From: a virus
Lineage: Duplodnaviria; Caudoviricetes
Length of the DNA stretch: 64,000 bases
Virus record (IMG/VR): IMGVR_UViG_2895427314_000002
Coordinates: 1-64,000 of that record
Strand: one strand, 5' to 3'
Part shown: positions 16,139 to 60,890 of the stretch, piece by piece
Layout: each line of letters opens with the position of its first letter
How positions within the stretch are numbered: position 1 is the first letter of the stretch
Notes under the pieces: model-generated
Database searches by the model: none
What the model was told of the DNA's origin: nothing
What the model saw: the letters and a program-made list of their open reading frames with translations, nothing else
Program-made: the position numbers and the translations under genes

Positions 16139-16490
16139 TGCCGTACAGCACGCTCGGCAGCCACCCCGACGTCCTCCGCATCGTCATCCAGGACGGAAAC
16201 GACACGCGCCCCAGCCCTGTCGATGAGGACGACGAGCTCATCCCTCCACCCCGGCCGGGCCAGTGGGCCCTCACCCTCATCGACGACGACAACCTCCACC
16301 TGCTCGCCATCGAGGAAGGCACCGCCGACGACCTGGCCGCCTTCCTCACCCGCCTCACCGTCCAGGCCGCCGCCGCCCTGCGGGCCGCCGGCGTGGACCT
16401 GCCGGGCCGCATCCACACCGCACTGGCCGACGCCGGGCTCCTCTCCCGCGACGATGCCGACACCACCTCCGATGTGCCAGAAGGAACCTC
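16138..16490 (+). CDS. Hypothetical protein lacking its expected stop (frame stays open to 17646)
   Basis: TGATG coupling at 16138; protein-like until PEGTS near 16490. Confidence 0.55.
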
Positions 16491-44628: not shown

Positions 44629-45177
44629 CTACTCGACGGAGTGCACGACCTCCGCGACGGGGCCGGCGGGCCGGAGCACGGCCTCGACGGCCTCCGGCGT
44701 CACGGAGGTCCCGTACTCGTCCGTCAGGATCTGGCTGATGGCGGCCGGGGTCCGTGAGGAGTCGTCACCGTAGGCGTCCAGGATCAGCTCGCAGGTGGTG
44801 TCGTCCAGGGCGGCGGCGGCCTCGTGGTCGGGCGTGACGGTGGACTCGACCGGGTGGTCGTTGTGGCTGTGGTCGTTGTGCCCGGTCATGGTGGTGCTCC
44901 TCAGGACCTGCTCAGCGCCAGCCTTGACATCGGAGAGATCGTCGAGCGCGTGTCCGGCCTGCTCGATGGCGGCGGACAGCAGCACCGAGGTCACCGCCCC
45001 GGGCGTCACCTCCTCGTCGTCGGTGTCCAGCGTCTCGGCGATCTGGTCCGGGGTGAGAGTCGGGTCGGCCGCGGCCGTCTCGACGATGAGCTTGCGGGTC
45101 TCGTCGGACAGCGCGGCGGCGGCCTCGGGGTCGGAGTGGCCGATCGGGTCCGGCGTGTGATCGTTACGTGCGGACAT
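44629..45177 (-). CDS. Acidic protein with duplicated HTH-like unit
   Basis: EAAAAL.D.T..LI...TP..I...L...VTP.AV..VL occurs twice. Confidence 0.7.
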   Translation of the reverse strand: MSARNDHTPDPIGHSDPEAAAALSDETRKLIVETAAADPTLTPDQIAETLDTDDEEVTPGAVTSVLLSAAIEQAGHALDDLSDVKAGAEQVLRSTTMTGHNDHSHNDHPVESTVTPDHEAAAALDDTTCELILDAYGDDSSRTPAAISQILTDEYGTSVTPEAVEAVLRPAGPVAEVVHSVE

Positions 45178-45231
45178 GAGTTCTGCCTTTCGCGAGGAGA
45201 GCTTTCGTGTCTCCGCCATCATGAGGGGCTT

Positions 45232-45284
45232 GTTGGCGGTTTCGCACACGTTTCGCCAAACAGCGCGTTGGCGGGACCGCCAAC
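45232..45284. promoter_or_regulatory. Tandem palindromes: degenerate 45232-45249 and perfect GTTGGCG-GGAC-CGCCAAC 45267-45284
   Basis: In divergent intergenic region, near a minus-strand CATGAT -10-like hexamer. Confidence 0.8.
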
Positions 45285-45502
45285 GGTTGTGCTCGCACGA
45301 CCTTCTGTGTCACACTTCGTGCGGGCGGCACCCCTATGCCTATCGGCAGAGCCCCCGACCTGCCCGTATACGAGTCGTGATGCTGAGCGCGTCTCTGGCA
45401 GGGCGTGTGCCGCCCCCACCTCCTCCTATGCGGCCGGTCGCGTTCGCGCGTCTACGGCCGCCTCAGCGCGTCGATCATTCCGGGCGAAACCAGCGAAAGT
45501 GG

Positions 45503-45745
45503 GTGAACGTGACCCCCGTGACCGCCCGCCAGGCCGCCGAACGACTCGAACGGGAGCCGTGCACGATCCGCCAGTGGGCGCACCGCTACAAGGTGCGCGC
45601 CCTCGGCCGCGCCGGACGCGAGACCGTGTACGACTACGGGGACCTGGCCACGATCGAATGGTGCATCTGGGACGGCCAGGAGGTCCCGGCCACGCCGGAG
45701 GACCGCGACGAGCTTCGTGCCGCTCGCCGAGAAACCGCCACGTGA
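45503..45745 (+). CDS. Small MerR/excisionase-like HTH protein
   Basis: VTARQAAERL...TIRQWAHRY...VYDYGDL. Confidence 0.7.
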   Translation: MNVTPVTARQAAERLEREPCTIRQWAHRYKVRALGRAGRETVYDYGDLATIEWCIWDGQEVPATPEDRDELRAARRETAT

Positions 45746-45747
45746 TC

Positions 45748-45924
45748 TCAGTCTGCGGGAATCTCCTCAAGGTGTACGAGGTAGGTGGTCCCATCCGCCA
45801 ACTGGACGGTGAACTCCTCCTCGACACCGTTAAGGTGTGCGACGTCGGAGCAGTGCACCACCCAGTCGATCTGCAGGGCACTCTCGTGGAGCTTCTGGGA
45901 GAGGAAGGAGAGATACCAGACCAT
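45748..45924 (-). CDS. 58-aa acidic protein (not in ORF track)
   Basis: RBS GAGAGGA; MVWYLSFLSQKLH...FTVQLADGTTYLVHLEEIPAD. Confidence 0.55.
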   Translation of the reverse strand: MVWYLSFLSQKLHESALQIDWVVHCSDVAHLNGVEEEFTVQLADGTTYLVHLEEIPAD

Positions 45925-46059
45925 GGCTGATCCTCTCAGAACTCACGAGTGTCGCGCCGGGCACGAGTAGGCTTGATCAGCAGGACCGTCGTGCATGGCA
46001 CCTCGATGTCGTCGCTCATGCTCCGATCCTCCCACCGGCCCGGCCGCGCTGTCCTTGCC

Positions 46060-46176
46060 TCACCGCAGCAGAGCGACGACGACGGGCACACTCACCGTCA
46101 ATACGATCACGCATAAGCGCAGCGTCGTGCCCCAGCACTTGATCGCTTCTCGCAAGATCTGGGTGCTGACCTGCAT
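46060..46176 (-). CDS. 38-aa hydrophobic peptide
   Basis: RBS GAGGAGG; MQVSTQILREAIKCWGTTLRLCVIVLTVSVPVVVALLR. Confidence 0.55.
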   Translation of the reverse strand: MQVSTQILREAIKCWGTTLRLCVIVLTVSVPVVVALLR

Positions 46177-46290
46177 GGCTTCCTCCTCAGCTCGGGGGGT
46201 GGATGCCTCCAGCGTGGCAACCGCCGGTAGAGGTGTGATGGGTGCTCGGTTGTGCGGTCCGGTATAGGTTCCTGAACGAAAGGCCCCCTT

Positions 46291-46515
46291 ATGGAGATCC
46301 GACCGCGCGTCCGCATCGTCGGCGCCGAACGCCACCAGCTCGCTCAGCACCTGGCCAGCCGCTACCAGGCGGGGGAATCCGTCCGCGCGCTCTCCCTCGC
46401 GATCGGCCGATCGTACGGGTTCGTCCACACGCTGCTGGAGGAGGCGAGCGTCGAGCTGCGCCACCGCGGCGGCAACCAGCGCAGCCGGCCCGCGGCGGCC
46501 GGGGCAGCGAAGTGA
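46291..46515 (+). CDS. HTH_58 protein, homolog of Streptomyces SCO1839/Gbn nucleoid-associated protein
   Basis: GAERHQLA..L..RYQAGESVRAL...GRSYGFVH.LL.E..V.LR.RGG. Confidence 0.8.
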   Translation: MEIRPRVRIVGAERHQLAQHLASRYQAGESVRALSLAIGRSYGFVHTLLEEASVELRHRGGNQRSRPAAAGAAK

Positions 46516-46853
46516 CGCCCGCCGAGATCGCCGCCACGAAGGCGGCAGAGCTGCTGGACAAGGCCGAGGAATACATCCTCGACGAGGGGGCCGTGAAGAA
46601 CTGCGTGGCCATCGCGGACGGCTGGATGCGGCTGCACCTGGCTATCACGACCGGTGCTGTCAGGTGACGCGGCATCTGGCCGCGTGCCAACCAAAGTGGC
46701 CAAACAATTGGCCGCTGCCATCGGAAGTGGCCAGCGCGGTAGCCGAGCGTACGGAATGGACCTTCGCCGTGGGAGTGCATGACTTCCGCCCTGACGCTAC
46801 GTAGAGTAATCTTTTCCTGACTTTCGGTTGCTCTACGTACAGGAGACAATGCC

Positions 46854-47234
46854 TTGACGTCACGATCACTCCGCACCCTGGCCACACTGGCGCTGGCCGC
46901 CACGGCCGCCACCAGCGTCGCCACCCCCGCCACCGCCGAAACCGACGCCCCGTACGCGCGGGCCGCCGCCTCCGTTGCTGCGGACGGCAACCTGATCCAC
47001 GGCAAGAACATCGTCTCCACCAGGCGCACCGCCACCGGCCGCTACTGCGTCCAGGTCGACGACCGGATCAACCTGTCCAACGCGGTCATCCACGTCACCG
47101 TCCACGGGTCTCGAATTGGGAGCGCCGTCACTCCCTCCCCTAACTGCGGCAACGCCGCCGACACCATCGCCGTGAGCATCGTCACCTACCAAGGCAATTC
47201 GGGGGACACCGGCTTCTACCTGTCCATCTCCTAA
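46854..47234 (+). CDS. Secreted small beta-rich protein (transposon cargo)
   Basis: RBS AGGAG, signal peptide ending ATA-E, Cys pair. Confidence 0.8.
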   Translation: MTSRSLRTLATLALAATAATSVATPATAETDAPYARAAASVAADGNLIHGKNIVSTRRTATGRYCVQVDDRINLSNAVIHVTVHGSRIGSAVTPSPNCGNAADTIAVSIVTYQGNSGDTGFYLSIS

Positions 47235-47269
47235 CCGAACTCCCCGCCGACAGCAGGCAGGGCTTGCAG

Positions 47270-47314
47270 GCGCGCACAGCTCCGACGCGCCACCGCGTTG
47301 GGAGCTGTGCGCGC
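47270..47314. terminator. Long hairpin between cargo genes
   Basis: GCGCGCACAGCTCC...GGAGCTGTGCGCGC. Confidence 0.6.
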
Positions 47315-47387
47315 TACTTGGGCGATGGCTGCTTCTCGCAATCGCGATTGACCGTAAGTCACCCCGAGAAGAGGAAGGAAACTCTCC

Positions 47388-47807
47388 GTGACGCATGCTG
47401 CTACTCACCGGGCGATACACGAGGCGTTCTCGCGCAGGAATTTCGATGAAGTGGCTGCGAAGCAGCACCCAAGCACCGAATACCGCGATCGGGCGCGACA
47501 ACTCACCGCCAACGGTCCGGCCGAGTCCATCGACTACCTGAAGGGGTGGACGACTGCCTTCTCCGACGCGGTCTTCGCCGATGGGATGTACCTGGACGGC
47601 ACCGATCACAGCGTCTCGTTCTGCACGATGCGAGGCACAAACGACGGCCCGTTTGGACCGTTTCCGGCCACCGGCAGCACGGTCGGGGTGCCGTTGTGTG
47701 AGGTCTTCCACTACGACGCAGACGGCCAGGTCATCGGCGCTGATCTCTTCTATGACGCAACGGCGTTCCTGGTTCAACTCGGCCACGCAGAAGCTCCGCC
47801 AGCCTGA
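47388..47807 (+). CDS. SnoaL-like / NTF2-fold ester cyclase (transposon cargo)
   Basis: AFSD...RGTNDGPFGPFPATG...CEVFHY..DGQV...YD. Confidence 0.85.
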   Translation: MTHAATHRAIHEAFSRRNFDEVAAKQHPSTEYRDRARQLTANGPAESIDYLKGWTTAFSDAVFADGMYLDGTDHSVSFCTMRGTNDGPFGPFPATGSTVGVPLCEVFHYDADGQVIGADLFYDATAFLVQLGHAEAPPA

Positions 47808-48056
47808 GTTCGCGAGCACGACCGGGGACCTCGTATACCGTGTCCGGCTCCATCTTCGGCGAGGGGTGCCATCCCTCAAAGGACCCATCTCGCCGGAGAT
47901 TGGCCACTTTGGATGGCAACGCATCGCCCGCCGACTGTGCCATCCAAAGTGGCCAGCGCGAGGTCACGCCATGCTCAAAGGCCAGATCAGATGTCACCTG
48001 ACAGGTGCGATCATGCGCTTCTCGCCGGACTGACCAGTCCTCGGGATGCAAATGGC

Positions 48057-48084
48057 GGAGCCCGCCGACAACACGGCGGGCTCC
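48057..48084. terminator. Hairpin between convergent genes
   Basis: GGAGCCCGCCG/CGGCGGGCTCC. Confidence 0.6.
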
Positions 48085-48094
48085 AGACCGTCAA

Positions 48095-48301
48095 TCAGAT
48101 CAGGCGCAGCGCGGCGGCTCGCTCCGCCCGGACCTGCCTCATCTGCTCGGCCTCTTCGGGCGTATACAGGTGGTCGTCCTCGCCATCGGGGTCGTCGTGG
48201 TAGACCTGCGACACCACCCACGCGCGAGCGGTGTCCTCGTCGGGGGCCCGAACGGACTGGTGGTCGCCGGTCTCGGGGATCTCGAACTCGAACAGAGGCA
48301 C
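48095..48301 (-). CDS. Hypothetical protein
   Basis: RBS AGGAGGAGG. Confidence 0.7.
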   Translation of the reverse strand: MPLFEFEIPETGDHQSVRAPDEDTARAWVVSQVYHDDPDGEDDHLYTPEEAEQMRQVRAERAAALRLI

Positions 48302-48312
48302 CAGACCTCCTC

Positions 48313-48624
48313 CTAATGAAGGTAGCTGCGCAGTCTGACAGCAGCCGCACGCGCGGCGCGGGCTCCCTCCTCCGCGTTGATCTCGTCAGCGGGCAGCGGG
48401 TCGCTCTCTCGGCCCAGGTACAGGTCAGCGTGATCGCACACCAGCGCCATGGTGACCTCGTCGTAGAAGCGGCTGACCTCCGAGTAGTCGTCGGGAATCT
48501 GGGCGTTCGGGTGCCCGGCCAGTGCGATTCGTACGGCGCCATCCGGACTCAGACCGGGCCCTCCGTCGAGGAGGTTGGCCACCGTGTCCAGCATGTCGGC
48601 CACGCGAGCCCAGTCGGTGCTCAT
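48313..48624 (-). CDS. Hypothetical protein
   Basis: ATGA coupling; similar to 48621 gene. Confidence 0.7.
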   Translation of the reverse strand: MSTDWARVADMLDTVANLLDGGPGLSPDGAVRIALAGHPNAQIPDDYSEVSRFYDEVTMALVCDHADLYLGRESDPLPADEINAEEGARAARAAAVRLRSYLH

Positions 48625-49022
48625 GAGCACCTCGCCAGTTCGACGGCGTGCGCCTGACCCCACATGGCCTGCGCCACCTCGTCCAGATCGCTGCCCTCGA
48701 CGTTCTGGTGTGACCAGTCCTCGACCTGCCGGAACAGGCGGGCCACCTCACGCGCCGTGCTACGGGCGCTACCTGTCGGGATGTGTGCCACGTCCACGCT
48801 CGTGAGGCCGTCGAAGGTGCTGAATGTGGCGCTGGCGTAGTGCAGCTCCAAGGCGCGGGCGGCGACCTGGTACCGCGCCTGCTGGCCACAGTCGTCGCAG
48901 TGCGCTGGCTGGTCACCCCAGATGGCGCGGGTGAGCGCCTGCTCAGGGTCGAGACCGTGGTCGCCGAGCATAATGTCGGCCGCCCGCTCCAGCACGTATG
49001 CGATGCACGCGAAGCTGACCAT
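48621..49022 (-). CDS. Hypothetical protein
   Basis: VLERAADIMLG..GLDP; coupled. Confidence 0.7.
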   Translation of the reverse strand: MVSFACIAYVLERAADIMLGDHGLDPEQALTRAIWGDQPAHCDDCGQQARYQVAARALELHYASATFSTFDGLTSVDVAHIPTGSARSTAREVARLFRQVEDWSHQNVEGSDLDEVAQAMWGQAHAVELARCS

Positions 49023-49381
49023 CAGCGCGCCCCCGTCCCCATGCGGTACATGCAGGCCACGACCACCGGTAAGTGGCCGAACGGGATCATGACCCGGTGG
49101 GTGGTCCGGCCGTCCAACGTCCGATGCACGTCGATGCCGCCCTCCTCCACGAAGAACGTGAGCAGCGGGCTGTCGTCCTCGTCGCCCAGCGCGATGACGA
49201 GCGAGGGGACGCCGGGCTTGGGCGTCGAGAGCAGGTCGATAACCCACAGGGCCGCCATCGGTGCAAGGGGGATGGGCTGGCCGGACACGTCTAGGACGAT
49301 CGACCCGTATCGAGCGTCGTCGGCCGCGGCCCGCACGTCCAGGAAGGTGCCGTCCGGGCCGGCGTAGATGGGCGTGTTCAT
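49022..49381 (-). CDS. Hypothetical protein, paralog of 50627
   Basis: IYAGPDGTFLDV...GSIVLDVSG. Confidence 0.7.
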   Translation of the reverse strand: MNTPIYAGPDGTFLDVRAAADDARYGSIVLDVSGQPIPLAPMAALWVIDLLSTPKPGVPSLVIALGDEDDSPLLTFFVEEGGIDVHRTLDGRTTHRVMIPFGHLPVVVACMYRMGTGAR

Positions 49382-49689
49382 CTCGACCACCACACCACGT
49401 CGAGGGCCAGCAGCAGCACCCATCCCAACCCGCCTACGGTGGCCGACCGGAGCAGAACCTCCCCGTACCGCCAGACGCCATAGGTGACGCGCAGGCAGAA
49501 GCCGGCGGTGATGAGCGTGGGCACCCAGGCCGCCCACCGCCAGTACGGGTAGACCAGCCCCAGCTCGTGCAGCAGCCACGCGAACGTACTCCATTTGCTG
49601 ATGGCCGCCAGGCCGAGCAGGAGGAACGCGAGGGATACTGCCATTTCCAGGCGAGCCAGGGTGATGAACATCGGTGCCCTCTTATTCAC
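49378..49689 (-). CDS. Membrane protein
   Basis: Three hydrophobic segments. Confidence 0.7.
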   Translation of the reverse strand: MNKRAPMFITLARLEMAVSLAFLLLGLAAISKWSTFAWLLHELGLVYPYWRWAAWVPTLITAGFCLRVTYGVWRYGEVLLRSATVGGLGWVLLLALDVVWWSR

Positions 49690-50182
49690 CGGCGTCTCCC
49701 TCGCTGACGGGAGGAAGCGGCTCGTCCCCTGGCGCCCGGTGGGGCTGAGGGAGGTCGCACTCCGTCCACTCCAGTGCAGTCGTGTGCTCCGCCAGCGGCC
49801 GACCGCAGGAAGGACAGCCTTCGCTGCGAGCCCGTTGGAGGCGGATCCGGTCCCGCTCCGCCTCCAGCAGTCCGTTCAGCGCGCCGTAGATTGCGGCCTC
49901 TCGCTCGGTGTAGAGCTGGACGCCCAGGTCGGCGGCGTACTGGAACGCGGGCCCCTTGTGCGGGGTGATGGTCATCAGACCGTCGTTGTCGGCGAGGTCG
50001 GCGACCACGATGACCGGCTCGTCGCCTTCTCCGAACATCGGGTGCAGGATGACGTCGCCGATCTCCAGCAGGTGCGCCGCCTTGATGCTGGGGTCGTTGT
50101 CGGCGCAGGCGAGCCGCTGTTCCCAGGTCGTGTGCTGGGCGTACAGCTCGCCGCAGTGGCAGAGGGCCAGGATGTCAGTCAC
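49682..50182 (-). CDS. Hypothetical Cys/His protein
   Basis: CHCG..YAQHT and CPSCGRPLAEHT repeats. Confidence 0.7.
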   Translation of the reverse strand: MTDILALCHCGELYAQHTTWEQRLACADNDPSIKAAHLLEIGDVILHPMFGEGDEPVIVVADLADNDGLMTITPHKGPAFQYAADLGVQLYTEREAAIYGALNGLLEAERDRIRLQRARSEGCPSCGRPLAEHTTALEWTECDLPQPHRAPGDEPLPPVSEGDAGE

Positions 50183-50504
50183 CCGTACTGCCCCCCTCCG
50201 CCTGCCAGACGGTGACCAGTGCTCTTGCCACCGCAGGCCAGTCAGCGCCCTCGATCTGCTCGTGGGTGAGGTCGGTGTGGAGGCGGGTGTCGTGGTCGTT
50301 GATTCCCGACCGGTCGGGGTTCCAGTGGTAGCTGACCAGGGTGTATAGCTCAGTGAGGTACTGCTGGCGGTCGCCGGGGTACTCGATCCCGGGGTCCGGG
50401 TGGCCGGTGGCGTGGCGTGCTCGGTAGATGGCGTCCTCCCGCACGTAGTCGGGCGCGTTGAGGAGCCACTGGGTGATGCACTCGGTGGGATTCAGCTCAC
50501 TCAT
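50175..50504 (-). CDS. Hypothetical protein
   Basis: Coupled ORF; ADWPAVARAL. Confidence 0.7.
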   Translation of the reverse strand: MSELNPTECITQWLLNAPDYVREDAIYRARHATGHPDPGIEYPGDRQQYLTELYTLVSYHWNPDRSGINDHDTRLHTDLTHEQIEGADWPAVARALVTVWQAEGGSTGD

Positions 50505-50634
50505 CGCTGGTGACCTCCTCGCCCTCGCTGGCGGGGACCTGGTCGGCCCAGGGCGTGCACCCGTCCGGGAAGCAGATCTCTTCCCAGCTCGGGTAGGTGA
50601 TCACGCGAGGGGTCTCCGGGTTCGTCTTACTCAC
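50497..50634 (-). CDS. 45-aa hypothetical protein (not in ORF track)
   Basis: RBS GAGGAGG, fills gap with overlaps at both ends. Confidence 0.5.
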   Translation of the reverse strand: MSKTNPETPRVITYPSWEEICFPDGCTPWADQVPASEGEEVTSDE

Positions 50635-51001
50635 CGCTCGTGACCTCCTCGACGGCGGCGCGCACGGCGTCGGCCTGGTCGTGGGGGAGCGTCACCTGGC
50701 CGTTGCTCCCGCAGGCCGGGAAGCTGACGTTCAGAATCAGGCCGTGCGGGTCGGAGGTGGCGGTCAGCCACAGCGTGCCGTCCGGGTCGGAGATCGGGAT
50801 CGTGATCTGGCCGTGCTGGGCGTTCGGGCCGAGCATGGCGAGTACCTGCGCGAGGTCGTCCGGCTCCAGCCCGAAGAGGATGCCGGAGACGTTGACGATG
50901 ACCGATCCGGCCGGGGCGTCGGGGAGCGCGTCGATGACGTCGAAGTACGTGCCGTCCGGCGCGGTGTAGAGCAGGGTCTTGGTGTCGAGGTAGTCGTTCA
51001 T
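50627..51001 (-). CDS. Hypothetical protein, paralog of 49022
   Basis: LYTAPDGTYFDV...GSVIVNVSG. Confidence 0.7.
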   Translation of the reverse strand: MNDYLDTKTLLYTAPDGTYFDVIDALPDAPAGSVIVNVSGILFGLEPDDLAQVLAMLGPNAQHGQITIPISDPDGTLWLTATSDPHGLILNVSFPACGSNGQVTLPHDQADAVRAAVEEVTSGE

Positions 51002-51096
51002 GGTGGCGTTTGTCCTTTCGCGAGGAATGGGGGCCACCGTACGGCCGGCGTGGTGATCGAGTCGCGAGCCTGCTGAAATCTGGCCGGAGACACGAA

Positions 51097-51123
51097 GAAG
51101 CCCGCCGACGCGCGGCGGGCTTC
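51097..51123. terminator. Intrinsic terminator (minus strand)
   Basis: GAAGCCCGCCG/CGGCGGGCTTC. Confidence 0.65.
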
Positions 51124-51139
51124 AGGTGTGCAGGGCCGG

Positions 51140-51328
51140 TCAGCCGGTGATCGCCTTCCGGGCCAGGTCCTTCACCTCCTGCTGCAACTCCGGCGAGTAC
51201 GGCAGGTGCTCGAACGTGGCGATCGGGATGTCCTCGTGGAGGATCGTGTAGCTGCTCGGGTCGTGCAAATTGTAGGTGACGGTGTACGAGTGGCCGGTCA
51301 CCTGGAACGAGCTGATGTCCTGAAGCAT
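51140..51328 (-). CDS. Hypothetical protein
   Basis: RBS AAAAGGA. Confidence 0.65.
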   Translation of the reverse strand: MLQDISSFQVTGHSYTVTYNLHDPSSYTILHEDIPIATFEHLPYSPELQQEVKDLARKAITG

Positions 51329-51410
51329 GGCGGGTGTCCTTTTCGCGAGGAAGCCGCCGCCACGGTACGACCAGAACCTAGATCATGTCGGGAGCCCGCT
51401 GAGATTCGCG

Positions 51411-51968
51411 TTACGGGACGAGGATGTTGATTAGAACGCCAATCGGGATCGAAACCGCCGCGCCCAGCGCAAAGAACATCCACTGAGTACGTCGCTCCGC
51501 GCGGATGGTGGCCTTCGTCTCACCGACGAGGATCTGGCGGATCCTTTCGGCCTGCTCCTTGTCAATTTCAAGCAGGCGTTCCTGCTCGGCAGCCTGAGAC
51601 AAGAGCGCATCACGAGCAGCCTGTTGCGCGCGTAGATCACGATCCAACTCGTCCATCAGGGTCGCCGCCTCGCCGAAGGCTTCGTTGACCCGCTTGATGC
51701 GGTGCCGAAGCCGATCGCCGGGGTCCTCGTCGGCAGAGTCCCAGTCACTGCCGAGAAAGCTGACAAAGACGTGGACGACCCCAAGCAGAAACACCAGGCC
51801 AGCAAACCCGAGAGGTATCTTGATCACCAGAGGCAAGCCCGCAGTCCAGCCACGAATGGTCTCCTCTAGACCGATCGCGTCGCCAGCATATGACATCCCG
51901 AAGATCGCGCCCACCAGGAGGGCGGCGAGACCGATGCGGGCCTTGTGATCTTTAAGCCATTGCATCAC
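51411..51968 (-). CDS. Membrane protein with coiled coil (lower-GC cargo)
   Basis: 2 N-terminal and 1 C-terminal TM segments. Confidence 0.75.
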   Translation of the reverse strand: MMQWLKDHKARIGLAALLVGAIFGMSYAGDAIGLEETIRGWTAGLPLVIKIPLGFAGLVFLLGVVHVFVSFLGSDWDSADEDPGDRLRHRIKRVNEAFGEAATLMDELDRDLRAQQAARDALLSQAAEQERLLEIDKEQAERIRQILVGETKATIRAERRTQWMFFALGAAVSIPIGVLINILVP

Positions 51969-52102
51969 TCCATTGCAGCGGCCGACCGTGACCTACGTTG
52001 CCTCCGTGATCATATTGCGATCTTGGAGCGGGCGCACATACCTACACGCGCACAGGTAACCGATGCGGACACGCTTGTGCGAGTTGTCGTTCATGGTGAT
52101 CC

Positions 52103-53086
52103 CTATTCGTCCACGGTCAGCTTGTCAATGGCGGCCTGGCGGTCGGCGTCGGTGGGCAGGGTGTAGCGGCGGGCAGTCTCGAGCGAGTGGCCCAGCAGCT
52201 CTGCGATAGTGACGACATCCTCACCTTCGCGAGCAAGCTTCGTGCCGAGGGTGTGCCGCAGGACGTGGCTGGTGAAGTCTTCGTCGCGGCCGACCTCGAT
52301 CCCGGCCCGGTCAGCGATGCCGTTCAGTACGTCGGTGGCGGAGCGGGCGGAGAGCCGTCCACCACGGGTGTTGAGAAACAGCGCCTTAGTCTTGTCGGCG
52401 CCGCGCAGGCTGGCTCGCTCGGTCAGGTACGTCTCCAACTCGGTACGGAGCTTGACGTGCATGTTGACCTCGCGGTACTTGCCGTTCTTGCCCATGCGAA
52501 TGATGAGCACGCCCTTACGGGCGCTGATGTGCAAGTCGTCGATGTCGAGCGCGACGAGCTCGTGAATGCGGGGGCCGGCGTAGAAGGCGGTGTAACCCAT
52601 GGCGCGGTCGCGGGGTGCGCACAGCGCCGTCTCGCGCAGGAATCGCAACTGGGCTCGCTGATCGAGCGAACGCGGAGCGAGGTTGGGAAGCGCGGTGCGT
52701 TTGGCGGCTGCGGGGCCGAGGCCGAGACGGCGGTTGAAGTCGTCTATGGCGGTCAGGTGCGCGTTGACGGTGGTGGGCTTGCGCTTGAGCACGGTCAGGA
52801 GATGGGCGCGGTAGTCCCGGGCGGCCCAGTCGCGGGTGGCGGGGTCGATGAGCGGGTCGCCGTCGAGGTCGGTCGCGTCGAGCCAGGCGAGGTACTGGCG
52901 GACGCGAGAAAGGTAGTTCCGGCGGGTGTCGTCGTCGAGCCGGAGAAGTGGGTCATTGACGGCGGTTTCATAGGCGGCGTAGACGTCGGTGTAGCGGTCG
53001 GGTACGGGTGTGGCGGTGGCTCCTGGACGTCGGCGGCTGGGGCGCTCATACGTTGTGGGATCTTGGTCTCTGATATCGGAAGTCAT
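52103..53086 (-). CDS. Tyrosine recombinase (Xer/TnpI-like with N-terminal SAM-like domain)
   Basis: AGPRIHEL (R), MGKNGK (K), HVLRHT (H-x-x-R), LGH, RRYT (Y). Confidence 0.93.
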   Translation of the reverse strand: MTSDIRDQDPTTYERPSRRRPGATATPVPDRYTDVYAAYETAVNDPLLRLDDDTRRNYLSRVRQYLAWLDATDLDGDPLIDPATRDWAARDYRAHLLTVLKRKPTTVNAHLTAIDDFNRRLGLGPAAAKRTALPNLAPRSLDQRAQLRFLRETALCAPRDRAMGYTAFYAGPRIHELVALDIDDLHISARKGVLIIRMGKNGKYREVNMHVKLRTELETYLTERASLRGADKTKALFLNTRGGRLSARSATDVLNGIADRAGIEVGRDEDFTSHVLRHTLGTKLAREGEDVVTIAELLGHSLETARRYTLPTDADRQAAIDKLTVDE

Positions 53087-53169
53087 ATTGGTGTCCTGTT
53101 GACCTCGGAGAATCGAAATATCGGAAGCCGTACCTGGAGCGCGCTTCTTATATTCACAAGTATCTGAAG
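53073..53169. repeat. Three spaced direct repeats ATATCGGAAG (putative recombinase site)
   Basis: 53073, 53118 and 53160 (GTATCTGAAG) in AT-rich DNA upstream of the recombinase. Confidence 0.55.
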
Positions 53170-53180
53170 TCTGGCATTTC

Positions 53181-53210
53181 GTTGGCGGTTCCGCCAACGA
53201 AAGCTACGAT
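53181..53210 (+). promoter_or_regulatory. Palindrome GTTGGCG-GTTC-CGCCAAC overlapping a sigma70-type promoter
   Basis: TTGGCG (53182) -17 bp- TACGAT (53205). Confidence 0.75.
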
Positions 53211-53247
53211 CGCGAGTGAAATCACTCTCCTCGCGAAAGAGATGATC

Positions 53248-53523
53248 ATGAGCGAAGCTCACACCGTCACGGAGCAACTGCTCGACGCGATGGCAGCCGC
53301 CCAGCGACGCCGGTTACTCGCTGACTCACTGCTCGACGGCTTCATCCTCAAGCGCGTCGATCTCGATGAAGCGAAAACCATCCTCCGGGGCATCTTCGGA
53401 TCCGACCCCACCACCCTCTCCCTCTCTGAGACAGACGAGGGTGTCGATGTCCGGCACGCCGACTCCGCGTTCATCGCGGAGCTTCGGGAGGAGCTGCGCG
53501 CTGAGGGGCGGGACGTCCGTTGA
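53248..53523 (+). CDS. Hypothetical protein
   Basis: First gene of operon; start 53242 or 53248. Confidence 0.65.
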   Translation: MSEAHTVTEQLLDAMAAAQRRRLLADSLLDGFILKRVDLDEAKTILRGIFGSDPTTLSLSETDEGVDVRHADSAFIAELREELRAEGRDVR

Positions 53524-53828
53524 CGACCTTCGTCATTCAGAAAGCAGAGGGCGCCGACCTCAAGCTGCCCTACCCGTACTTCGCCGACGAGTCCGGCATG
53601 ATCGGCCGCCAGGACAAGTGGAAGGGCAACCCGACCCAGGTCATCGGCTTCCACAGCGATCCGAACATCATGCAGATCGACCTGCTGTGGGAGGACGCGA
53701 TCCAGGACCCGGACCGGGCGTCGGGCATGTACCTCGTCACGGCCGACGCCGAGGGCAACTTCGGCACGCACCTGACCCTCGTGGAGTCAGTGACGGTCGT
53801 CGCTCTGGCGGGTGGTGAGGTCCAGTGA
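53520..53828 (+). CDS. Hypothetical protein
   Basis: TTGA coupling; KLPYPYF. Confidence 0.7.
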   Translation: MTTFVIQKAEGADLKLPYPYFADESGMIGRQDKWKGNPTQVIGFHSDPNIMQIDLLWEDAIQDPDRASGMYLVTADAEGNFGTHLTLVESVTVVALAGGEVQ

Positions 53829-54469
53829 GACTGCCCTACGAGTACGGAATGCGGTCCAACGACGCTGACGGCGATCCGGTCATCGTCATGAGCACCAACG
53901 AGGCGCACGATCGCGCCGCCGCCGACGCCTGGTGCCGCACTCGGCGGGCCTGGCAGGAGGAGCGGGAGATCACGCCGGACGTCACCCTCATGCGGCGCCT
54001 GCCGGACGGGGAGTGGGAGGAAGACCCCGGCTGGAAGTCCGAGATCACCACCTGGGAGGCCGGGTGCGCCCGCATCGAGGCCGCGCCCACCGATGAGGCG
54101 CGGCGCGATGCCCGCTCCGAGTTGGACGCATGGGTGGAGTTCAAAACGACAGCGCGCGAGACCGGCCAGATCAGGGTCAAGGTGCGGGACTACTCTGCCG
54201 AGGCCCCGTGGGGCGTCGGGCTCACCAACCCCGTGGTCCGCGCCATTGTCATCTCCGCGTACTGCGTGGTGTGCGGCTGCCCGCGTGGCATGCCCCGGCG
54301 GATCCACCAGTGCGATGATGGCGTGCACTACTGGCCGGACGTGTGGAACAACCCGTGCGGCCACACCGACATGTACGAGGCCGTGATCAAAGAGGCTGAG
54401 GAGTTCGCGCCGGCCGGTCGGATCACCCTGTTCGGCGAGTACGACGAGTCGAGCGGTGAGGCCGGATGA
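53825..54469 (+). CDS. Hypothetical Zn-ribbon protein
   Basis: CVVCGCPRG...WNNPCGHTDMY. Confidence 0.75.
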   Translation: MRLPYEYGMRSNDADGDPVIVMSTNEAHDRAAADAWCRTRRAWQEEREITPDVTLMRRLPDGEWEEDPGWKSEITTWEAGCARIEAAPTDEARRDARSELDAWVEFKTTARETGQIRVKVRDYSAEAPWGVGLTNPVVRAIVISAYCVVCGCPRGMPRRIHQCDDGVHYWPDVWNNPCGHTDMYEAVIKEAEEFAPAGRITLFGEYDESSGEAG

Positions 54470-54837
54470 GCCTCATCGTCTACAAGACCGCCCCCGGCCG
54501 CGACGCCTACGTGATCTTCCGGACGGAAGACGACGTGCCCCTGTGCATGGGCGACCGCGCCGAGATCAGTGACCGGCTCTGCATGGAGATCCCTCCGGCC
54601 ATCGTGGACGAGCTGATGGACCGGGCCGACCGGACCGGCACCACCTACAACGACGGCACCGGCGGCTGGGACGACACGGGGTTCATGGTCGGAGAGAACA
54701 TGTTCCCCACCGACGTCGGGTCCCGGTTCCTGCCGCGCGCCAACCTGGAGGAGTTCGTCCGGGCCGCCGCGACGCAAGACATGGAGCGCATGGTCGCGCT
54801 GACGACCGAGATGCTCGAATCGGGTGAGGCCCGATGA
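54466..54837 (+). CDS. Hypothetical protein
   Basis: Coupled; RADRTGT motif. Confidence 0.75.
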   Translation: MSLIVYKTAPGRDAYVIFRTEDDVPLCMGDRAEISDRLCMEIPPAIVDELMDRADRTGTTYNDGTGGWDDTGFMVGENMFPTDVGSRFLPRANLEEFVRAAATQDMERMVALTTEMLESGEAR

Positions 54838-55169
54838 GCAACACGGCCTACACCCCCGACGACGAGACACTCATCGCCTCCGAGCTGGACTCGGCCACCG
54901 CAGACGGGCGGCTAATCAGCGACGCAGGAGCCCGAGTCATTGCCGCCCAATTCGCCGTGGGTGGTGACGCGTTCGCCTGTCTGGCCAGCACCGGCACTAT
55001 CTTGCTGGAGGAGATCCGTTCCGAGATCCCCAGTCTTCTGGAGGGTTACGACTCCGACAGCCTGTTCATCAGGGCGTTGACCGCGCTGGACCACTACGTC
55101 AGCCATCATGGTGTGCGGGGTACGGTCCCGGGCTGGAGCGACCTGTGGCTGCGTGGTGATGCCCGATGA
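54834..55169 (+). CDS. Hypothetical protein
   Basis: ISDAGARVIA...RGTVPGWSDLW. Confidence 0.75.
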   Translation: MSNTAYTPDDETLIASELDSATADGRLISDAGARVIAAQFAVGGDAFACLASTGTILLEEIRSEIPSLLEGYDSDSLFIRALTALDHYVSHHGVRGTVPGWSDLWLRGDAR

Positions 55170-55384
55170 GCGACACCGTGAAGTTCCGTGTCTGGTCCGA
55201 GATCCGGGACATCAGGAACAGCTACGACGAAGAGATCACCGACTCGGAGATCTCGGTCGCGGACTGGGCCGCCATGACGCAGGCCGAGCGTGATGAGCTC
55301 GGCGAGCGGATCTATCAGGAGTACGTCGAGAACCGTGTCGGGGGCGCGGCCCAGCCGGTCGAGCCTACGGGCGGTGGTGCGTGA
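55166..55384 (+). CDS. Small acidic phage protein
   Basis: Coupled ORF. Confidence 0.7.
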   Translation: MSDTVKFRVWSEIRDIRNSYDEEITDSEISVADWAAMTQAERDELGERIYQEYVENRVGGAAQPVEPTGGGA

Positions 55385-55671
55385 TGGCGCTTACCGAGAC
55401 GGAGCGGCTGGAGCGGATCGCGCGGTTGGTCCCGCCGTGCCCTCCGCCGAACGTGCACGAGGGCTACGATCTCTGCCCGCTCCACGGTGTGCCGTGGCCA
55501 TGCCCCGATACGCAGGTGAACTGGCTCGCCCGTGGCCTTGACTTGGTCGAGGCCCAGCGGAAGCACATCGACGCCCTGCCGAAGTCTGCCGATCTCTTCC
55601 TCACCGCAGCGGACATGGAGTACGACCCCGCCGAGGATGACTCGGTAGGGTCGGTCGGGGGTGGCATGTGA
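55381..55671 (+). CDS. Hypothetical protein
   Basis: CPLHGVPWPCPDT. Confidence 0.7.
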   Translation: MMALTETERLERIARLVPPCPPPNVHEGYDLCPLHGVPWPCPDTQVNWLARGLDLVEAQRKHIDALPKSADLFLTAADMEYDPAEDDSVGSVGGGM

Positions 55672-55865
55672 CGGCACAGCGGGAAGCGGAGTGCTCGTGC
55701 GGGCGCACTGTGCGGGTGCATGTTCCTCGTCACGGCGACGGCAGCGAATTGCACACGTACTGGCACAAGGACGGTCGCGACCCCAGTCGATGGTGCCGTT
55801 CTTCTGTCGATGTGCTCGACACCCGTGTCGTTGCGGTGCTCACCGAAGCGCGAGGTGAAGCATGA
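55668..55865 (+). CDS. Small Cys/His protein
   Basis: CSCGR...WH...WC. Confidence 0.65.
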   Translation: MTAQREAECSCGRTVRVHVPRHGDGSELHTYWHKDGRDPSRWCRSSVDVLDTRVVAVLTEARGEA

Positions 55866-56113
55866 GCGAAGGCCGGATGCGGTGGGTGAGCGACGGCTGC
55901 GTGGTCGTCTCCGCCTACACGCTGGGGTGGCCTTGCGCGAGCGGCATCGTGGAGGACTACGGGCTCAACCCGGACGATTTCCCCGAGATGATGACGGACA
56001 TGGAGCAGAGCGTAGGCGAGGCCGTCATCGACACCATCCTCCAGGTCCTCGATGAGAACGCCGCTGACCCGAGGATCGCCGTGGTGCTCGCCCAAGCGCG
56101 GGGCCAGGCATGA
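55862..56113 (+). CDS. Hypothetical protein
   Basis: Coupled ORF. Confidence 0.65.
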   Translation: MSEGRMRWVSDGCVVVSAYTLGWPCASGIVEDYGLNPDDFPEMMTDMEQSVGEAVIDTILQVLDENAADPRIAVVLAQARGQA

Positions 56114-56358
56114 CCCCGCGTCTCACTCCGCGCCGGCTGGAGTTCCTGGGCCTCCTTGGCGAGCAGGGCAGTGTCGTGCTGTACGCTTCGTTCGAGGACA
56201 TCCCGGAGTACGGTCTTGCCCAGGCCGACGTGGATGCTCTGGTCACGCTGGGGTTGATCAGTGTGGGGGAGCCGAGCGGTCATCGCGGTACGGCTTGTAA
56301 GGCGGTGCTCACCGACGCGGGCCGGGCCGAGCTGGAACGGCGCGGGGCCGCGTCGTGA
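56110..56358 (+). CDS. Winged-helix-like protein
   Basis: LVTLGLI...LTDAGRAEL. Confidence 0.6.
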   Translation: MTPRLTPRRLEFLGLLGEQGSVVLYASFEDIPEYGLAQADVDALVTLGLISVGEPSGHRGTACKAVLTDAGRAELERRGAAS

Positions 56359-56612
56359 ACCGCCTTCGAGCCGAGGTGCGCGCGTTTGCCCAGGGCGTCG
56401 TGGAGCTGCTGCATACGTTCGATGTGGTCTCGGTCGCTGGGCCGCCGTGGCGGTGGCGCGTGATCGACACCGGATCAGCCAAGCGGATCGCTGCGGTTCA
56501 CGCGGGTCGGCGGAAGATAGGGCCCGAGGTGCCTACGCCCCGTACGGTCTTCGATGATCTGATCGAGGTTCTTAAAGATCGGCGGCGGGCTCGGATGCGG
56601 GGCCGCCGGTAA
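56355..56612 (+). CDS. Hypothetical basic protein
   Basis: Coupled ORF. Confidence 0.6.
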   Translation: MNRLRAEVRAFAQGVVELLHTFDVVSVAGPPWRWRVIDTGSAKRIAAVHAGRRKIGPEVPTPRTVFDDLIEVLKDRRRARMRGRR

Positions 56613-56992
56613 TGGATCGCCGTTGGTGGGTGGTCACCGCCGCCTGCATCGAGGAGGGCGGGATCGTGGTCGAGGCCCCGTCCGCCCGCCAGGCGGTCGC
56701 CCAGGTGAAGCGGAGCCTCGAAGAGGCCGATCATGAGAACGGCAACACGTGGCGGTCGGCCCATGCCTGGGTCCGAGATCAGGCAGTCCAGTTCAGCCAC
56801 GGTCCGCTCGACGACCGTGAGGCCTTCGAGTACGAGCTTGGCTGGACGCTGGCGTCCGCGTTCGCTCGGGTGCTGCTTACGCAATGGCGGGGCGAGCCGG
56901 TGAACCCGATCTCGCGTCAGGAGGCGTTGCGGATAGTGACAGAGGAGCAGGTCGCGGGCATCGAACGGCGGCTGGCGGCCAAGTTTGGGTGA
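56612..56992 (+). CDS. Hypothetical protein
   Basis: TAATG coupling. Confidence 0.65.
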   Translation: MDRRWWVVTAACIEEGGIVVEAPSARQAVAQVKRSLEEADHENGNTWRSAHAWVRDQAVQFSHGPLDDREAFEYELGWTLASAFARVLLTQWRGEPVNPISRQEALRIVTEEQVAGIERRLAAKFG

Positions 56993-57031
56993 CCGTTGAG
57001 TCGTGATCACCGCACGAAAGGATCTTCGCGT

Positions 57032-57049
57032 GCTGGCGGTTCCGCAAAC
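57032..57049. promoter_or_regulatory. Degenerate palindrome GCTGGCG-GTTC-CGCAAAC
   Basis: 2 mismatches, intergenic. Confidence 0.5.
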
Positions 57050-57133
57050 GGCCAGGCATGCGCGGAATGCTCATTATGGAGGCCGCTCGCGGCCTGACTG
57101 ACCTGGTCTGATGGCCAGCGTCGCTCGCGAGGT

Positions 57134-57162
57134 GAGGCGCTGAGATTCGCTCTCAGCGCCTC
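57134..57162. terminator. Hairpin terminator
   Basis: GAGGCGCTGAGA/TCTCAGCGCCTC. Confidence 0.65.
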
Positions 57163-57179
57163 CCTGGCTCACGACAAGA

Positions 57180-57380
57180 TCACACTACGTTCGGATGCCG
57201 GGGATACTTGACGTACGGGGGCCGGACGGACGAAATCTCGACCATCGGGCCGGTCATGCCGGACCTGACCGTGCCATCGCCATATGGATCCGGCATGGGC
57301 CGGGCGTCCTGGGCGAGCGCGGACGTTGCGGTGATCAGTAGCGCTCCACCAGTCAGCAGCGTGACGAGCAGTTTCTTCAT
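57180..57380 (-). CDS. Small secreted peptide
   Basis: MKKLLVTLLTGGALLITATSALA signal peptide; RBS GGGGGA. Confidence 0.65.
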   Translation of the reverse strand: MKKLLVTLLTGGALLITATSALAQDARPMPDPYGDGTVRSGMTGPMVEISSVRPPYVKYPRHPNVV

Positions 57381-57513
57381 GCAGTCCCCCGGTGCGTGAG
57401 GAGTTCGCCTTCGATAGTGCGGTGGTCTGCCCTGATTCGTGTGCGAACGCTGAACGGATCACCGCTGGTATTGGCTCCTGCTGGATCCGGCGGGCCACTA
57501 TCGCGCCATCACA

Positions 57514-58149
57514 TTGATCGATCTGGAGGCACTGGTGCGTCGTATCGAGTACATGCCCCTCCCCGAGATCGTGCGGGCCGTCCGGAATCCCAAGGAGCAC
57601 GATCTCGGCTCCATCAGGAAGTCGATCGAGAAGTTTGGCTGCACGGTCGCGGGCGAGCTGGACGAGCGGACCGGCCGCCTCGTCGCCGGGCACGGGCGGC
57701 TGCTCGTGCTGGAGGCGATGGCCGGCGAGGGCAAGTCGCCGCCCGAGGGCGTCAAGGTCGGCGACGACGGCGTGTGGCTGGCGCCCATCGTGCGCGGCTG
57801 GTCCTCCCGTTCCGACGCGGATGCGGAAGCGTACCTCGTGGCCAACAACTCGACGTCCGAGCGCGGCGGGTGGGACCGCGGCGCTCTGGCCGACATGCTG
57901 GCCGACATCTTCCAGGCCGACGAGGAGCTGCTGGCCGCGACCGGCTACAACCCCACCGACATCGAGGACCTGGTGCCCGCCGACCTCGGGGACGCGCCGC
58001 CCGCGCCGGTGCCAACGCCGGGGCCGGCCGAGCGCGTCGAGCCGCCGGACGTGTGGGGCGTCATCATCACCTGCAACAGCGAGGAGGAGCAGGTCGAACT
58101 TCTGGAGCGGCTGGCCGCCGAAGGCCGCTCTGTCCGAGCCCTCATGTAG
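57514..58149 (+). CDS. ParB/Sulfiredoxin N-terminal domain protein (packaging-associated type)
   Basis: NPKEH...SIEKFG...LVAGHGRL...LVANN; start may be GTG 57535. Confidence 0.8.
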   Translation: MIDLEALVRRIEYMPLPEIVRAVRNPKEHDLGSIRKSIEKFGCTVAGELDERTGRLVAGHGRLLVLEAMAGEGKSPPEGVKVGDDGVWLAPIVRGWSSRSDADAEAYLVANNSTSERGGWDRGALADMLADIFQADEELLAATGYNPTDIEDLVPADLGDAPPAPVPTPGPAERVEPPDVWGVIITCNSEEEQVELLERLAAEGRSVRALM

Positions 58150-59419
58150 GCCCATCACCTGCCCGTCCAGTGCGCAGCGTAGGCTCCGCGCCTGACTGCT
58201 CCTTCGCTGTACTCGTGGCGGGCAGATCGCCAAGTCTCAGTAGGGCGCCAGCAGGCCCGCTCACCAGTCGCCAGCCCGGTGGCCACGTATGCATCCCCTC
58301 AACCTGCGTCACGCGGGCCCCGCCCAGATCGACGCATGCACCCTGCGTGTTCTCGAACGAGACATCGCTGGCGAAGGTTGCGGCGCCGAACCAAGCTCTG
58401 CCCGTGAAGCTCGCTCCGTCGAAGCGCGCATCGCCGGCGAAGGTTGCGGCATCGAACCAAGCTCTGCCCGTGAACTTCGCTCCGTCGAACCAGACATGAT
58501 GGGTGAACATTGTCCCGTTGAACAACGCGTTGCTGGCGAACGTCGCCCCAGTGAACCAGGCGTCGCCGGTGAATCTGGCCTGTTCGAACCAGGCGCGTCC
58601 GGTGAAGGTAGCCGTGACGAACAAGGCGTCGCCGACAAAGGTAGCCCCATCGAGATCGATGTGATGAGCATGGCAGCCAATGAAGTCGAAGTCGAGCAAG
58701 GTGGCATCAGTCAGGTCGAGCCGGATTCCTGGCCAGAAGAGAGGGTTTACGGCGATAGAGCGTTTCCACCAGCGGCGTTTGCTCCAACGTAGGTGATCGG
58801 CCAGCAGGCGTTGGGCGGTCAGCCGAATTTGACGTTCTTCGTCAGTGCTTCGGCCAGTTCGTGTCGTGGTACGGCTTGTAAGCCCAGTGCGCGCGGTTCG
58901 CTGGGCGGTGCGGATCCTCTGCTGCTGGTCGGCCTCGCGCTGCGGTGTCCATGGCATCCGCAAGTAGGAGCAGATCACGTCCACAACCCTTTGCCGTAAC
59001 TCGGGATTGTCTTGCGCGAGTTGTTCGAGGGCATACAGGCCGCCGAGTCGGATGGGAGCTTGGTCGCTGCCGAGTTGCTCCACCGCATTGCTGAACCGGT
59101 CTACGTCAAGCCCTCGTTCGCTGAGTCGGAAGGTTCGCCGGGCCGTGTCAGCATTGCGGGCGGTGTAGAACACGGCCAGCAGTGCGGCCAGGCCAGTGGC
59201 CATCGCCAGAACATTCCCTCGTACGGCAGAGACGGCGGCGGCCCAGTCTTTACCGGTCAGCTCGTTTGGTGGCAAGGATGCTGGTGGCCGAACGTCATCG
59301 TTGAGAGTGATCCCGTCAACGTTTCGCAGCACCCATATGGCGCCCGGACCGAGCATCCATGTCAACGTCAGCACAGCAATGGGCGCCAGCATGACGACGA
59401 TGATCGAGGAAGGTTTCAC
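58142..59419 (-). CDS. Membrane-anchored pentapeptide-repeat protein
   Basis: N-terminal TMs; RFSNAVEQLGS..IRLGGLYALE; ATFTG.AWF repeats; start uncertain. Confidence 0.85.
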   Translation of the reverse strand: MKPSSIIVVMLAPIAVLTLTWMLGPGAIWVLRNVDGITLNDDVRPPASLPPNELTGKDWAAAVSAVRGNVLAMATGLAALLAVFYTARNADTARRTFRLSERGLDVDRFSNAVEQLGSDQAPIRLGGLYALEQLAQDNPELRQRVVDVICSYLRMPWTPQREADQQQRIRTAQRTARTGLTSRTTTRTGRSTDEERQIRLTAQRLLADHLRWSKRRWWKRSIAVNPLFWPGIRLDLTDATLLDFDFIGCHAHHIDLDGATFVGDALFVTATFTGRAWFEQARFTGDAWFTGATFASNALFNGTMFTHHVWFDGAKFTGRAWFDAATFAGDARFDGASFTGRAWFGAATFASDVSFENTQGACVDLGGARVTQVEGMHTWPPGWRLVSGPAGALLRLGDLPATSTAKEQSGAEPTLRTGRAGDGPT

Positions 59420-59530
59420 CGTCAGAAATACCGCTTCGTGCTTGCCGCGCCCATGAATCTGATGATGCCCCGACAGCCTGCCGTGCGGACGCTCAGTGAT
59501 GGGATCGTAACTCGGAATGAGGAGGCGCTC

Positions 59531-60631: not shown

Positions 60632-60890
60632 GCTTGCTCCGCAGGCTGGCCAGTGCCTCGTCCGGGGTGTCGCCGACGCCGATCATGCCGCCGTGCTCCT
60701 TCCACCAGCCGTACGCAACCCGGTCGTCCGCGAAGGCGTCTTGAGGCACGTCCCACGGCTCCGTCAGGAACGCGGCAAAGGTGCCGCCCTCGTAGCTGCC
60801 GCTGTAGCGCGTCTTGACGATCGTCACCGGGTACAGCGGGTCGATGCCTTCGGGGAAGACGCGGTTCAGGGGGCGGGGCAGGTCGGTCAC
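60624..60890 (-). CDS. Hypothetical protein
   Basis: YPVTIVKTRYSGSYEGG...GDTPDEA. Confidence 0.7.
   Translation of the reverse strand: MTDLPRPLNRVFPEGIDPLYPVTIVKTRYSGSYEGGTFAAFLTEPWDVPQDAFADDRVAYGWWKEHGGMIGVGDTPDEALASLRSKLT

Follow-up and report, generated by a model that had tools for sequence, protein, structure and literature searches.

The 64,000-nucleotide (nt) window analyzed here (positions 1 to 64,000 of IMG/VR virus record IMGVR_UViG_2895427314_000002, Caudoviricetes) is part of a 91.6-kb provirus and contains, at 46658-48003, a 1,346-bp segment that interrupts a small phage gene and brings two genes of its own. A preliminary description had read this segment as a transposase-less, cargo-carrying mini-transposon with Tn7/Mu-like ends, and the features it relied on (length, tips, a GGTGC duplication, four 18-bp repeats and an asymmetry between the ends) were all found again when we read the sequence. 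We consider it very probable that the segment is a non-autonomous DDE transposon of the mobile insertion cassette (MIC) type, with multi-site ends in the style of Tn7 and Mu and a helper that acts in trans.

The left tip of the element (46658-46681) reads TGTCAGGTGAC-GCGGC-ATCTGGCC, and the right tip (47980-48003) reads GGCCAGAT-CAGAT-GTCACCTGACA, which is the reverse complement of TGTCAGGTGAC-ATCTG-ATCTGGCC. The tips therefore form imperfect terminal inverted repeats of 24 bp, identical at 11 + 8 positions. Immediately outside them lie the two identical copies of the target-site duplication GGTGC, both read directly, at 46653-46657 and 48004-48008. An 18-mer, TGCCATCCAAAGTGGCCA, is present with 0-2 mismatches at 46685(+), 46716(+), 47938(+) and 47901(-). 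These four matches, all within the element ends, compare with 0.03 expected from shuffled sequences, and no further match lies outside the element ends in the 64-kb window. The 18-mers belong to 19-bp sites of the form GTGNC-N8-TGGCCA, one of which is also held by each terminal inverted repeat, starting from nucleotide 7 of the tip.

The two ends arrange these sites differently. In the left end (about 76 nt; 46658-46733, + strand), the tip TGTCAG is followed by three direct sites, GTGNC-N8-TGGCC(A), at 46664-46681 (L1, inside the terminal inverted repeat), 46684-46702 (L2) and 46715-46733 (L3). The right end (about 110-130 nt; 47874-48003, - strand, with its tip at 48003) has a direct site at nucleotide 7 from the tip (R1, 47980-47997, within the inverted repeat of the tip), a second direct site at nucleotide 37 whose spacer is 7 nt (47950-47967), an inverted site at nucleotides 49-66 that has its TGGCCA in common with the preceding one (47938-47955), and a further direct site at nucleotide 86 (47901-47918). 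Alignment of the left end with 16 other left ends and of the right end with 15 other right ends (17 and 16 sequences in all) shows that this asymmetry is conserved across a family: the left-end positions 7, 27 and 58 recur, and the right ends keep direct sites at nucleotides 7 and about 84 with an inverted site near 50.

The insertion point falls in a module composed of a 189-amino-acid (aa) MerR-like gene (45176-45745), an HTH_58 gene (46291-46515, + strand; PF19575, E=1.5e-24) and the small target gene. The N-terminal part of the target gene (46512-46667, + strand) has 49 native codons followed by V-R-stop from the element tip (TGA at 46665-46667), which is why the host assembly GCA_008086045.1 annotates it as a 51-aa product. 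Its displaced 3′ remnant (48009-48033, + strand) encodes ...IMRFSPD and ends at the stop codon 48031-48033. Removing the element and one GGTGC in silico restores a 56-aa open reading frame (ORF), VTPAEIAAT...TTGAIMRFSPD, as the preliminary description had stated, and places the insertion 25 nt ahead of the stop codon. The GTG of the target gene also overlaps the TGA of the upstream HTH_58 gene (GTGA, 46512-46515), an arrangement that suggests translational coupling of the two genes.

Unoccupied versions of this site exist. When the 4.5 kb around the site was compared with 110 Nonomuraea genomes, one per species, the left and right flanks proved contiguous in three related prophage modules (G084:C37, G109:C9 and G010:C541), each with an uninterrupted homologue of the 56-aa gene and a single GGTGC. 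The window minus the element and one GGTGC aligns without gaps across the junction to all three. The segment is a real transposon insertion.

Related ends also occur at other sites, nearly all of them in one genus. We scanned one genome from each of 185,579 species with a pattern that joins the tip to the first internal repeat. The strict form gave 14 matches, eight of them in Nonomuraea (seven with an identical 45-nt geometry and one at 44 nt) and the rest attributable to chance. Among the 110 Nonomuraea genomes, the 24-nt tip pattern with one mismatch allowed matched in 32, chance-like tip matches included, the left-end profile in 27 (E <= 0.001), and the right-end profile in 35 (E <= 0.01), about 20-25 of these strongly. 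Family ends are present in roughly a quarter to a third of these species genomes, at one to four ends per genome and about 38 loci. In a sample of 401 genomes from the wider family, exact tips were found only in two Nonomuraea and once in G445. Searches of phage and plasmid collections returned no DNA relatives, even when a small family member served as query at E=1; two pattern scans of viral contigs gave chance matches only, all 53 matches in metagenome contigs were tip-only and due to chance, and a literature search for the tip sequence found only vertebrate primers. The end family is thus known almost only from Nonomuraea. Of the two conditions that would have overturned the preliminary description, ends present nowhere else and no empty-site allele, neither holds. 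Within the 91.6-kb provirus there is no second copy, and the element is single-copy there.

We catalogued 11 two-ended elements of 655-1,959 bp, the window copy included, and three further ones of about 2.45 kb, 240 bp (G056) and 92 bp (G101). The last two are cargo-less minis, and only these fit the definition of a miniature inverted-repeat transposable element (MITE). Similarity between elements is confined to the ends, about 76 nt on the left and 110-130 nt on the right, which are only about 75-90% identical between copies. Eight elements have both tips intact; six of these are flanked by a perfect 5-bp duplication, one by a 4-of-5 match and one by none. The six perfect duplications, from the window, G021, G010, G001, G053a and G014b copies, all differ (GGTGC, CCGGC, CTCGG, CCAAG, GCGGC and GCCGC).

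These data bear on whether the segment could be an accidental composite, that is, two independent MITEs or unrelated repeats that came to lie on either side of host genes by chance. Solo ends of both types are common, and in G003 two left ends stand in direct order 5.35 kb apart, both of which would suit a composite. However, every complete element pairs one left-type with one right-type end in inverted orientation, with the duplication outside the pair. Past the 24-bp tips the two end types are unlike, each being conserved over 76-130 nt, and the empty site shows that the whole 1,346 bp came in one event. A composite is therefore highly unlikely.

The duplications also speak to how the element was inserted. 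The phage has a tyrosine recombinase gene some 4 kb downstream of the element, and a second one adjoins a left end in G003, which would be in keeping with a cassette moved by site-specific recombination, either integron-like or by a phage tyrosine recombinase. Against this, the 5-bp duplications of seven insertions are all different and reveal no common core, TGT...ACA tips that belong to terminal inverted repeats mark DDE transposition and not a crossover site, and most copies have no recombinase nearby. We regard recombination of this kind as extremely improbable. Because the duplications vary in sequence at a fixed length and the tips are TGT...ACA, the enzyme involved would be a DDE transposase making cuts with a 5-bp stagger rather than a site-specific recombinase.

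What varies between family members is the cargo. The G110 and G014b elements carry an EF-hand protein gene, the 1,959-bp G021 element a divergent TetR and NmrA-like pair, the 862-bp G010 element a BP74_N secreted protein, the G014a element a pentapeptide-repeat membrane protein, the G090 element a histidine phosphatase and the G445 element an S9 peptidase; several others encode small proteins that match no Pfam family, some with signal-peptide-like N-termini. In the 2.45-kb member (G004:C147, 2284-4135), a gene for a 436-aa protein whose C-terminal part is a NucA/NucB DNase domain precedes a small ORF of 172 aa, and this cargo resembles a toxin-immunity pair. One and the same pair of ends has thus been joined to a dozen or more different cargos, in agreement with the earlier proposal of a family with interchangeable cargo. 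Two species (G110 and G014b) have the EF-hand cassette at 92.6% identity in unrelated flanks, and a loaded cassette must therefore have moved as a unit. Since cargo orientation relative to the ends is variable, expression does not depend on a promoter borne by the ends.

In the window element, the cargo consists of two ORFs with good coding statistics, and it too had been described correctly. Cargo gene 1 (46854-47234, + strand; GC content at third codon positions 0.88) encodes a protein of 126 aa that matches no Pfam family and has a signal-peptide-like N-terminus. Apart from itself, its sole homologue is a ‘secreted protein’ of Actinomadura graeca (50% identity); at the DNA level, the 5′ part of the gene is similar to loci in many Nonomuraea genomes (70-77% identity). 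Cargo gene 2 (47388-47807, + strand), also called in the host assembly annotation, encodes a 139-aa SnoaL-like protein that matches PF07366 (E=4.6e-10) and PF12680 (E=6.5e-8), both above the curated cut-offs. Between the two genes lies a hairpin with a perfect 14-bp stem (100% complementary) and a 17-nt loop (47270-47314, + strand), a possible terminator of cargo gene 1; it has no T-run and was not listed by a simple terminator scan. Directly 5′ of the ribosome-binding site of cargo gene 1, at 46798-46839, a 12-bp inverted repeat (TACGTAGAGTAA / TTGCTCTACGTA, with an 18-nt spacer) could serve as a cargo-borne operator or form an RNA hairpin.

We propose the following route for the insertion in the window. 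A transposase supplied in trans, probably of the DDE type to judge from tips and duplications, would bind the 19-bp GTGNC-N8-TGGCCA sites, three direct ones on the left and four on the right with one inverted. It would then pair the two ends, cut at the TGT...ACA tips and join these to target DNA cut with a 5-bp stagger, the repair of which would leave the GGTGC duplication. The helper would be encoded elsewhere, in some host or on a mobile element. The element itself landed in the early or regulatory region of its phage, a temperate one whose host is a Nonomuraea-like actinomycete, and gave this phage two moron-like additions, a secreted-protein gene and a SnoaL-like gene. As to the helper itself, we put the chance of a TnsB/TniA/MuA-like enzyme (the Tn7, TnsBC, Tn5053 and Mu group) at about even. 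An enzyme like IstA of IS21 seems rather unlikely, an IS3/IS481-like one equally so, and other types take up what is left.

Mobilization in trans fits the gene content, as there is no transposase gene in any family copy, the window element included, and no rve-type gene in the 91.6-kb provirus. The preliminary description had also proposed using the ends to find an autonomous parent with TnsB/TnsC/TniQ or IstAB. Several observations weigh against our interpretation, the most direct being that no autonomous element with these ends, and no left/right pair more than 2.5 kb apart, was found in the 110 Nonomuraea genomes. Nor was such a parent found in the 401 family-level genomes or among plasmids, phages, viral contigs and metagenomes, and the TniB/TniQ, IstB and rve loci of eight element-bearing genomes are without these ends. 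G021, which has a pristine 1,959-bp copy, has neither TniQ nor IstB, nor any convincing TniB. A large part of the family may be fossil, given the many solo and eroded ends. Finally, the spacing of the sites is unlike Tn7's own arrangement, and the repeats are putative protein-binding sites. The helper may be strain-specific or on a rare mobile element, because the search covered one genome per species, the host assembly not among them.

Candidate parents were rejected for want of matching ends. The TniB/TniQ loci of G010 and G014 differ in both ends and site motif, the IstB (IS21) loci in G001, G014 and G053 show no end similarity, and G010 carries a family element with no IstB. None of the rve genes of seven element-bearing genomes, considered as helper loci, has these ends or this site motif, and no such ends accompany the large rve ORFs of 613 and 629 aa on G010:C543 and G014:C293. 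Two insertion sequences (IS) with rve genes, an eight-copy one in G021 with TGTCAGAC... ends and a 1.29-kb one inside the related G010 prophage, have different ends and no repeated sites. The G021 IS is 1.6 kb long with a single 385-aa rve ORF in eight identical copies; its inverted repeats, TGTCAGAC/TGTCAAAC, lie 8-9 nt inside the common boundaries, and it shows no obvious duplication.

A Tn7-like element of G010 was likewise dismissed as the parent, as its ends begin TGTAGGGTCC. It is present as two tandem copies in G010:C233:27000-46999 (about 4975-11680 and 11680-18300 of that stretch), with ORFs of 292, 708, 376 and 913 aa and with TniB and TniQ domains. The gene whose stop codon immediately precedes the tandem is presumably dnaB, judging from its C-terminal peptide, and the region downstream of dnaB may be an attachment site for this actinomycete Tn7-like element.

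Solo ends were considered as borders of large autonomous elements and set aside, because the sequence inward of them shares no DNA or proteins: there is nothing in common beyond the terminal 80-125 nt or so, and those examined are truncated or interrupted by IS256-type elements. A right end at the edge of contig G014:C217 might have pointed to a parent present in many copies, but this was dismissed because an IS256-like element has inserted 60 nt inside the family end (G014:C217:1-188). The same element is found at nine other G014 contig edges; it is multi-copy (terminal ...GTTTACTGGACAGGCCC) and breaks the assembly at 10 or more places. A 644-aa ORF inside a left end in G003 was discarded as a cryptic transposase, having no Pfam, PHROG or PDB match and low atlas recognition. 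The S9 peptidase ORF inside the G445 left end also has 644 aa, but the two are unrelated. A sequence of about 220 nt, some 380-600 nt inside three related solo left ends, recurs elsewhere in the same loci (G046, G050, G058 and G109) and may represent a separate small repeat family.

The missing parent raises the possibility that the family consists of decayed remnants of autonomous transposons whose transposase is extinct, with the window copy old, immobile and inherited with the phage. The divergence of the ends noted above, the solo, truncated or IS-interrupted ends, the low copy number of one to four ends per genome and the failure to find a parent in any collection searched would all agree with this. 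On the other hand, six copies retain intact tips with perfect duplications, an identical 24-nt right tip occurs in seven genomes, and the G010 element has the same A-to-G change in both tips. The near-identical EF-hand cassette at two unrelated sites also argues against extinction, as does the limit of the search to one genome per species. We think an entirely fossil family quite unlikely, and prefer a cassette family mobilized by a helper in trans.

The position of family members relative to phage DNA was the last point at issue. The 46-kb contig G010:C541 is a shorter, syntenic relative of the window provirus, with homologues of the window genes at about 11-16 kb and 45-64 kb in the same order and at 42-90% amino-acid identity. 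It carries its own 862-bp BP74_N cassette about 150 bp from the window site, with its own small gene intact. Other members lie about 550 nt upstream (G001) or 1.8 kb downstream (G014a) of a MerR-like/HTH_58/small-gene module, or immediately upstream of an HTH_58 gene (G101). The G014:C217 member adjoins a gene start, VQIKPRVRIV, that is HTH_58-like by its N-terminal residues only and gave no tblastn match at E <= 1e-4. Further ends in G003, G069 and G064 adjoin homologues of the phage's ParB-like, ABC-GNAT and 51-kb genes. In all, about 10 of the 38 loci are in DNA related to the window phage lineage, which by our estimate accounts for well below 1% of a 12-Mb genome.

This enrichment is strong, but the preference is not absolute because most copies lie elsewhere. 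The earlier suggestion that the family targets mobile DNA is accordingly borne out in part: loci are enriched in the lineage prophages, which selection or spread by phages could also explain. The source of the enrichment could be targeting of mobile DNA, tolerance of insertions in phage accessory regions or carriage by the phages themselves; targeting of mobile DNA is known for the TnsE pathway of Tn7 and for the Tn5053 group. In a comparison of window positions 45100-60700 with related prophages, the insertions near the HTH_58 module (window, G010, G001, G101 and G014:C217) have one orientation, left end first as in the window, and those further right on the phage map (two in G003, and G069 and G064), together with G014a, have the opposite one. 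The split may reflect the direction of transcription or replication, although the insertions are few.

A bolder proposal is an orphan cassette system, in which one Tn7/Mu-style pair of ends with a dozen or more cargos is served by a helper of an unrecognized class, or on a rare element, that steers insertions into the accessory or regulatory region of one phage lineage and so acts as a shuttle for moron genes. We hold this to be unlikely. If true, it would be a transposon counterpart of integron cassettes in actinomycetes, supplying phages with moron genes, and a phage bias due to true targeting would add a new example of transposons that seek mobile DNA. The empty site, together with the sister phage that has a different cassette some 150 bp away, shows directly that temperate actinophages can gain accessory genes by taking up small loaded cassettes. 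With the ends defined as 76 nt and 130 nt, both the nature of the helper transposase and a possible targeting of phage DNA become directly testable. If the helper were found, a TnsB-type system that is new or divergent might come to light in a natural-product genus, and these minimal ends are a potential gene-delivery vehicle for Nonomuraea.

Comparison with known systems separates the window element from several kinds of small mobile DNA. Unlike a MITE, it is 1,346 bp long with two genes, and unlike integron cassettes, the family has no fixed recombination core at its junctions. The mycobacteriophage mobile elements MPME1 and MPME2 are cargo-less, measure about 440 bp and have 11-bp inverted repeats as well as a small ORF of their own. 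They resemble the present family as small mobile elements within actinobacteriophage genomes, but the family differs in its long multi-site ends, 5-bp duplication and variable cargo. IS21 family members have TG...CA termini, multiple repeated sites in their ends and duplications of 4-8 bp, but istA and istB are absent from all copies of the present family.

Closer in architecture are the Tn7-like, TnsBC, Tn5053 and Mu elements, which have TGT...ACA tips, a 5-bp duplication and asymmetric ends with several repeats of about 20 bp, one of them at the tip. The ends of Tn7 have three separated sites on the left and four packed sites on the right, with a spacing that differs from that of the present family. 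Tn7-like elements also tend to sit on mobile DNA and occur in actinomycetes, including Nonomuraea G010. Actinomycete TnsBC/Tn7-like transposons with TGT/ACA tips and 5-bp duplications have been described (10.1101/2024.11.13.623437), and the TnsB/TniA/MuA group is documented in actinomycetes as well (PMC8649781). In contrast, no tnsB (rve DDE), tnsC, tniB or tniQ gene lies in or near any family copy, and the family elements measure 0.09-2.5 kb rather than 5-100 kb. With no autonomous parent found, the original assignment to the Mu/Tn7/Tn5053/IS21 class draws on end architecture and duplication length and is tentative. Membership in the TnsB/TniA/MuA group cannot be claimed, as the family lacks the genes that define it and the search brought up no cognate enzyme, and an IS21- or IS3/IS481-type helper is possible.

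Functionally, the element is a mobile insertion cassette. MICs carrying qnrD or qnrS2 (PMC3913671, PMC5444012), Xanthomonas MICs carrying transcription activator-like effector genes (PMC4337579), and the Tn3-derived inverted-repeat miniature elements (TIMEs) and mosaic transposons (PMC4133298) are the nearest precedents. Like MICs, the present family has transposon ends around passenger genes, no transposase, a target duplication, presumed mobilization in trans and varied cargo. Known MICs, however, are bounded by a simple inverted repeat in two copies that stems from an identified IS or Tn3 parent, whereas the ends described here are long, unlike each other and equipped with three to four sites each, with no parent known. 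Among the non-autonomous bacterial transposons described so far, it is unusual for one end pair to be joined to many single-gene cargos while over 100 host genomes show no transposase linked to it. The family differs from known MICs, too, in combining at least a dozen cargos per end pair with confinement to one genus and enrichment in one phage lineage.

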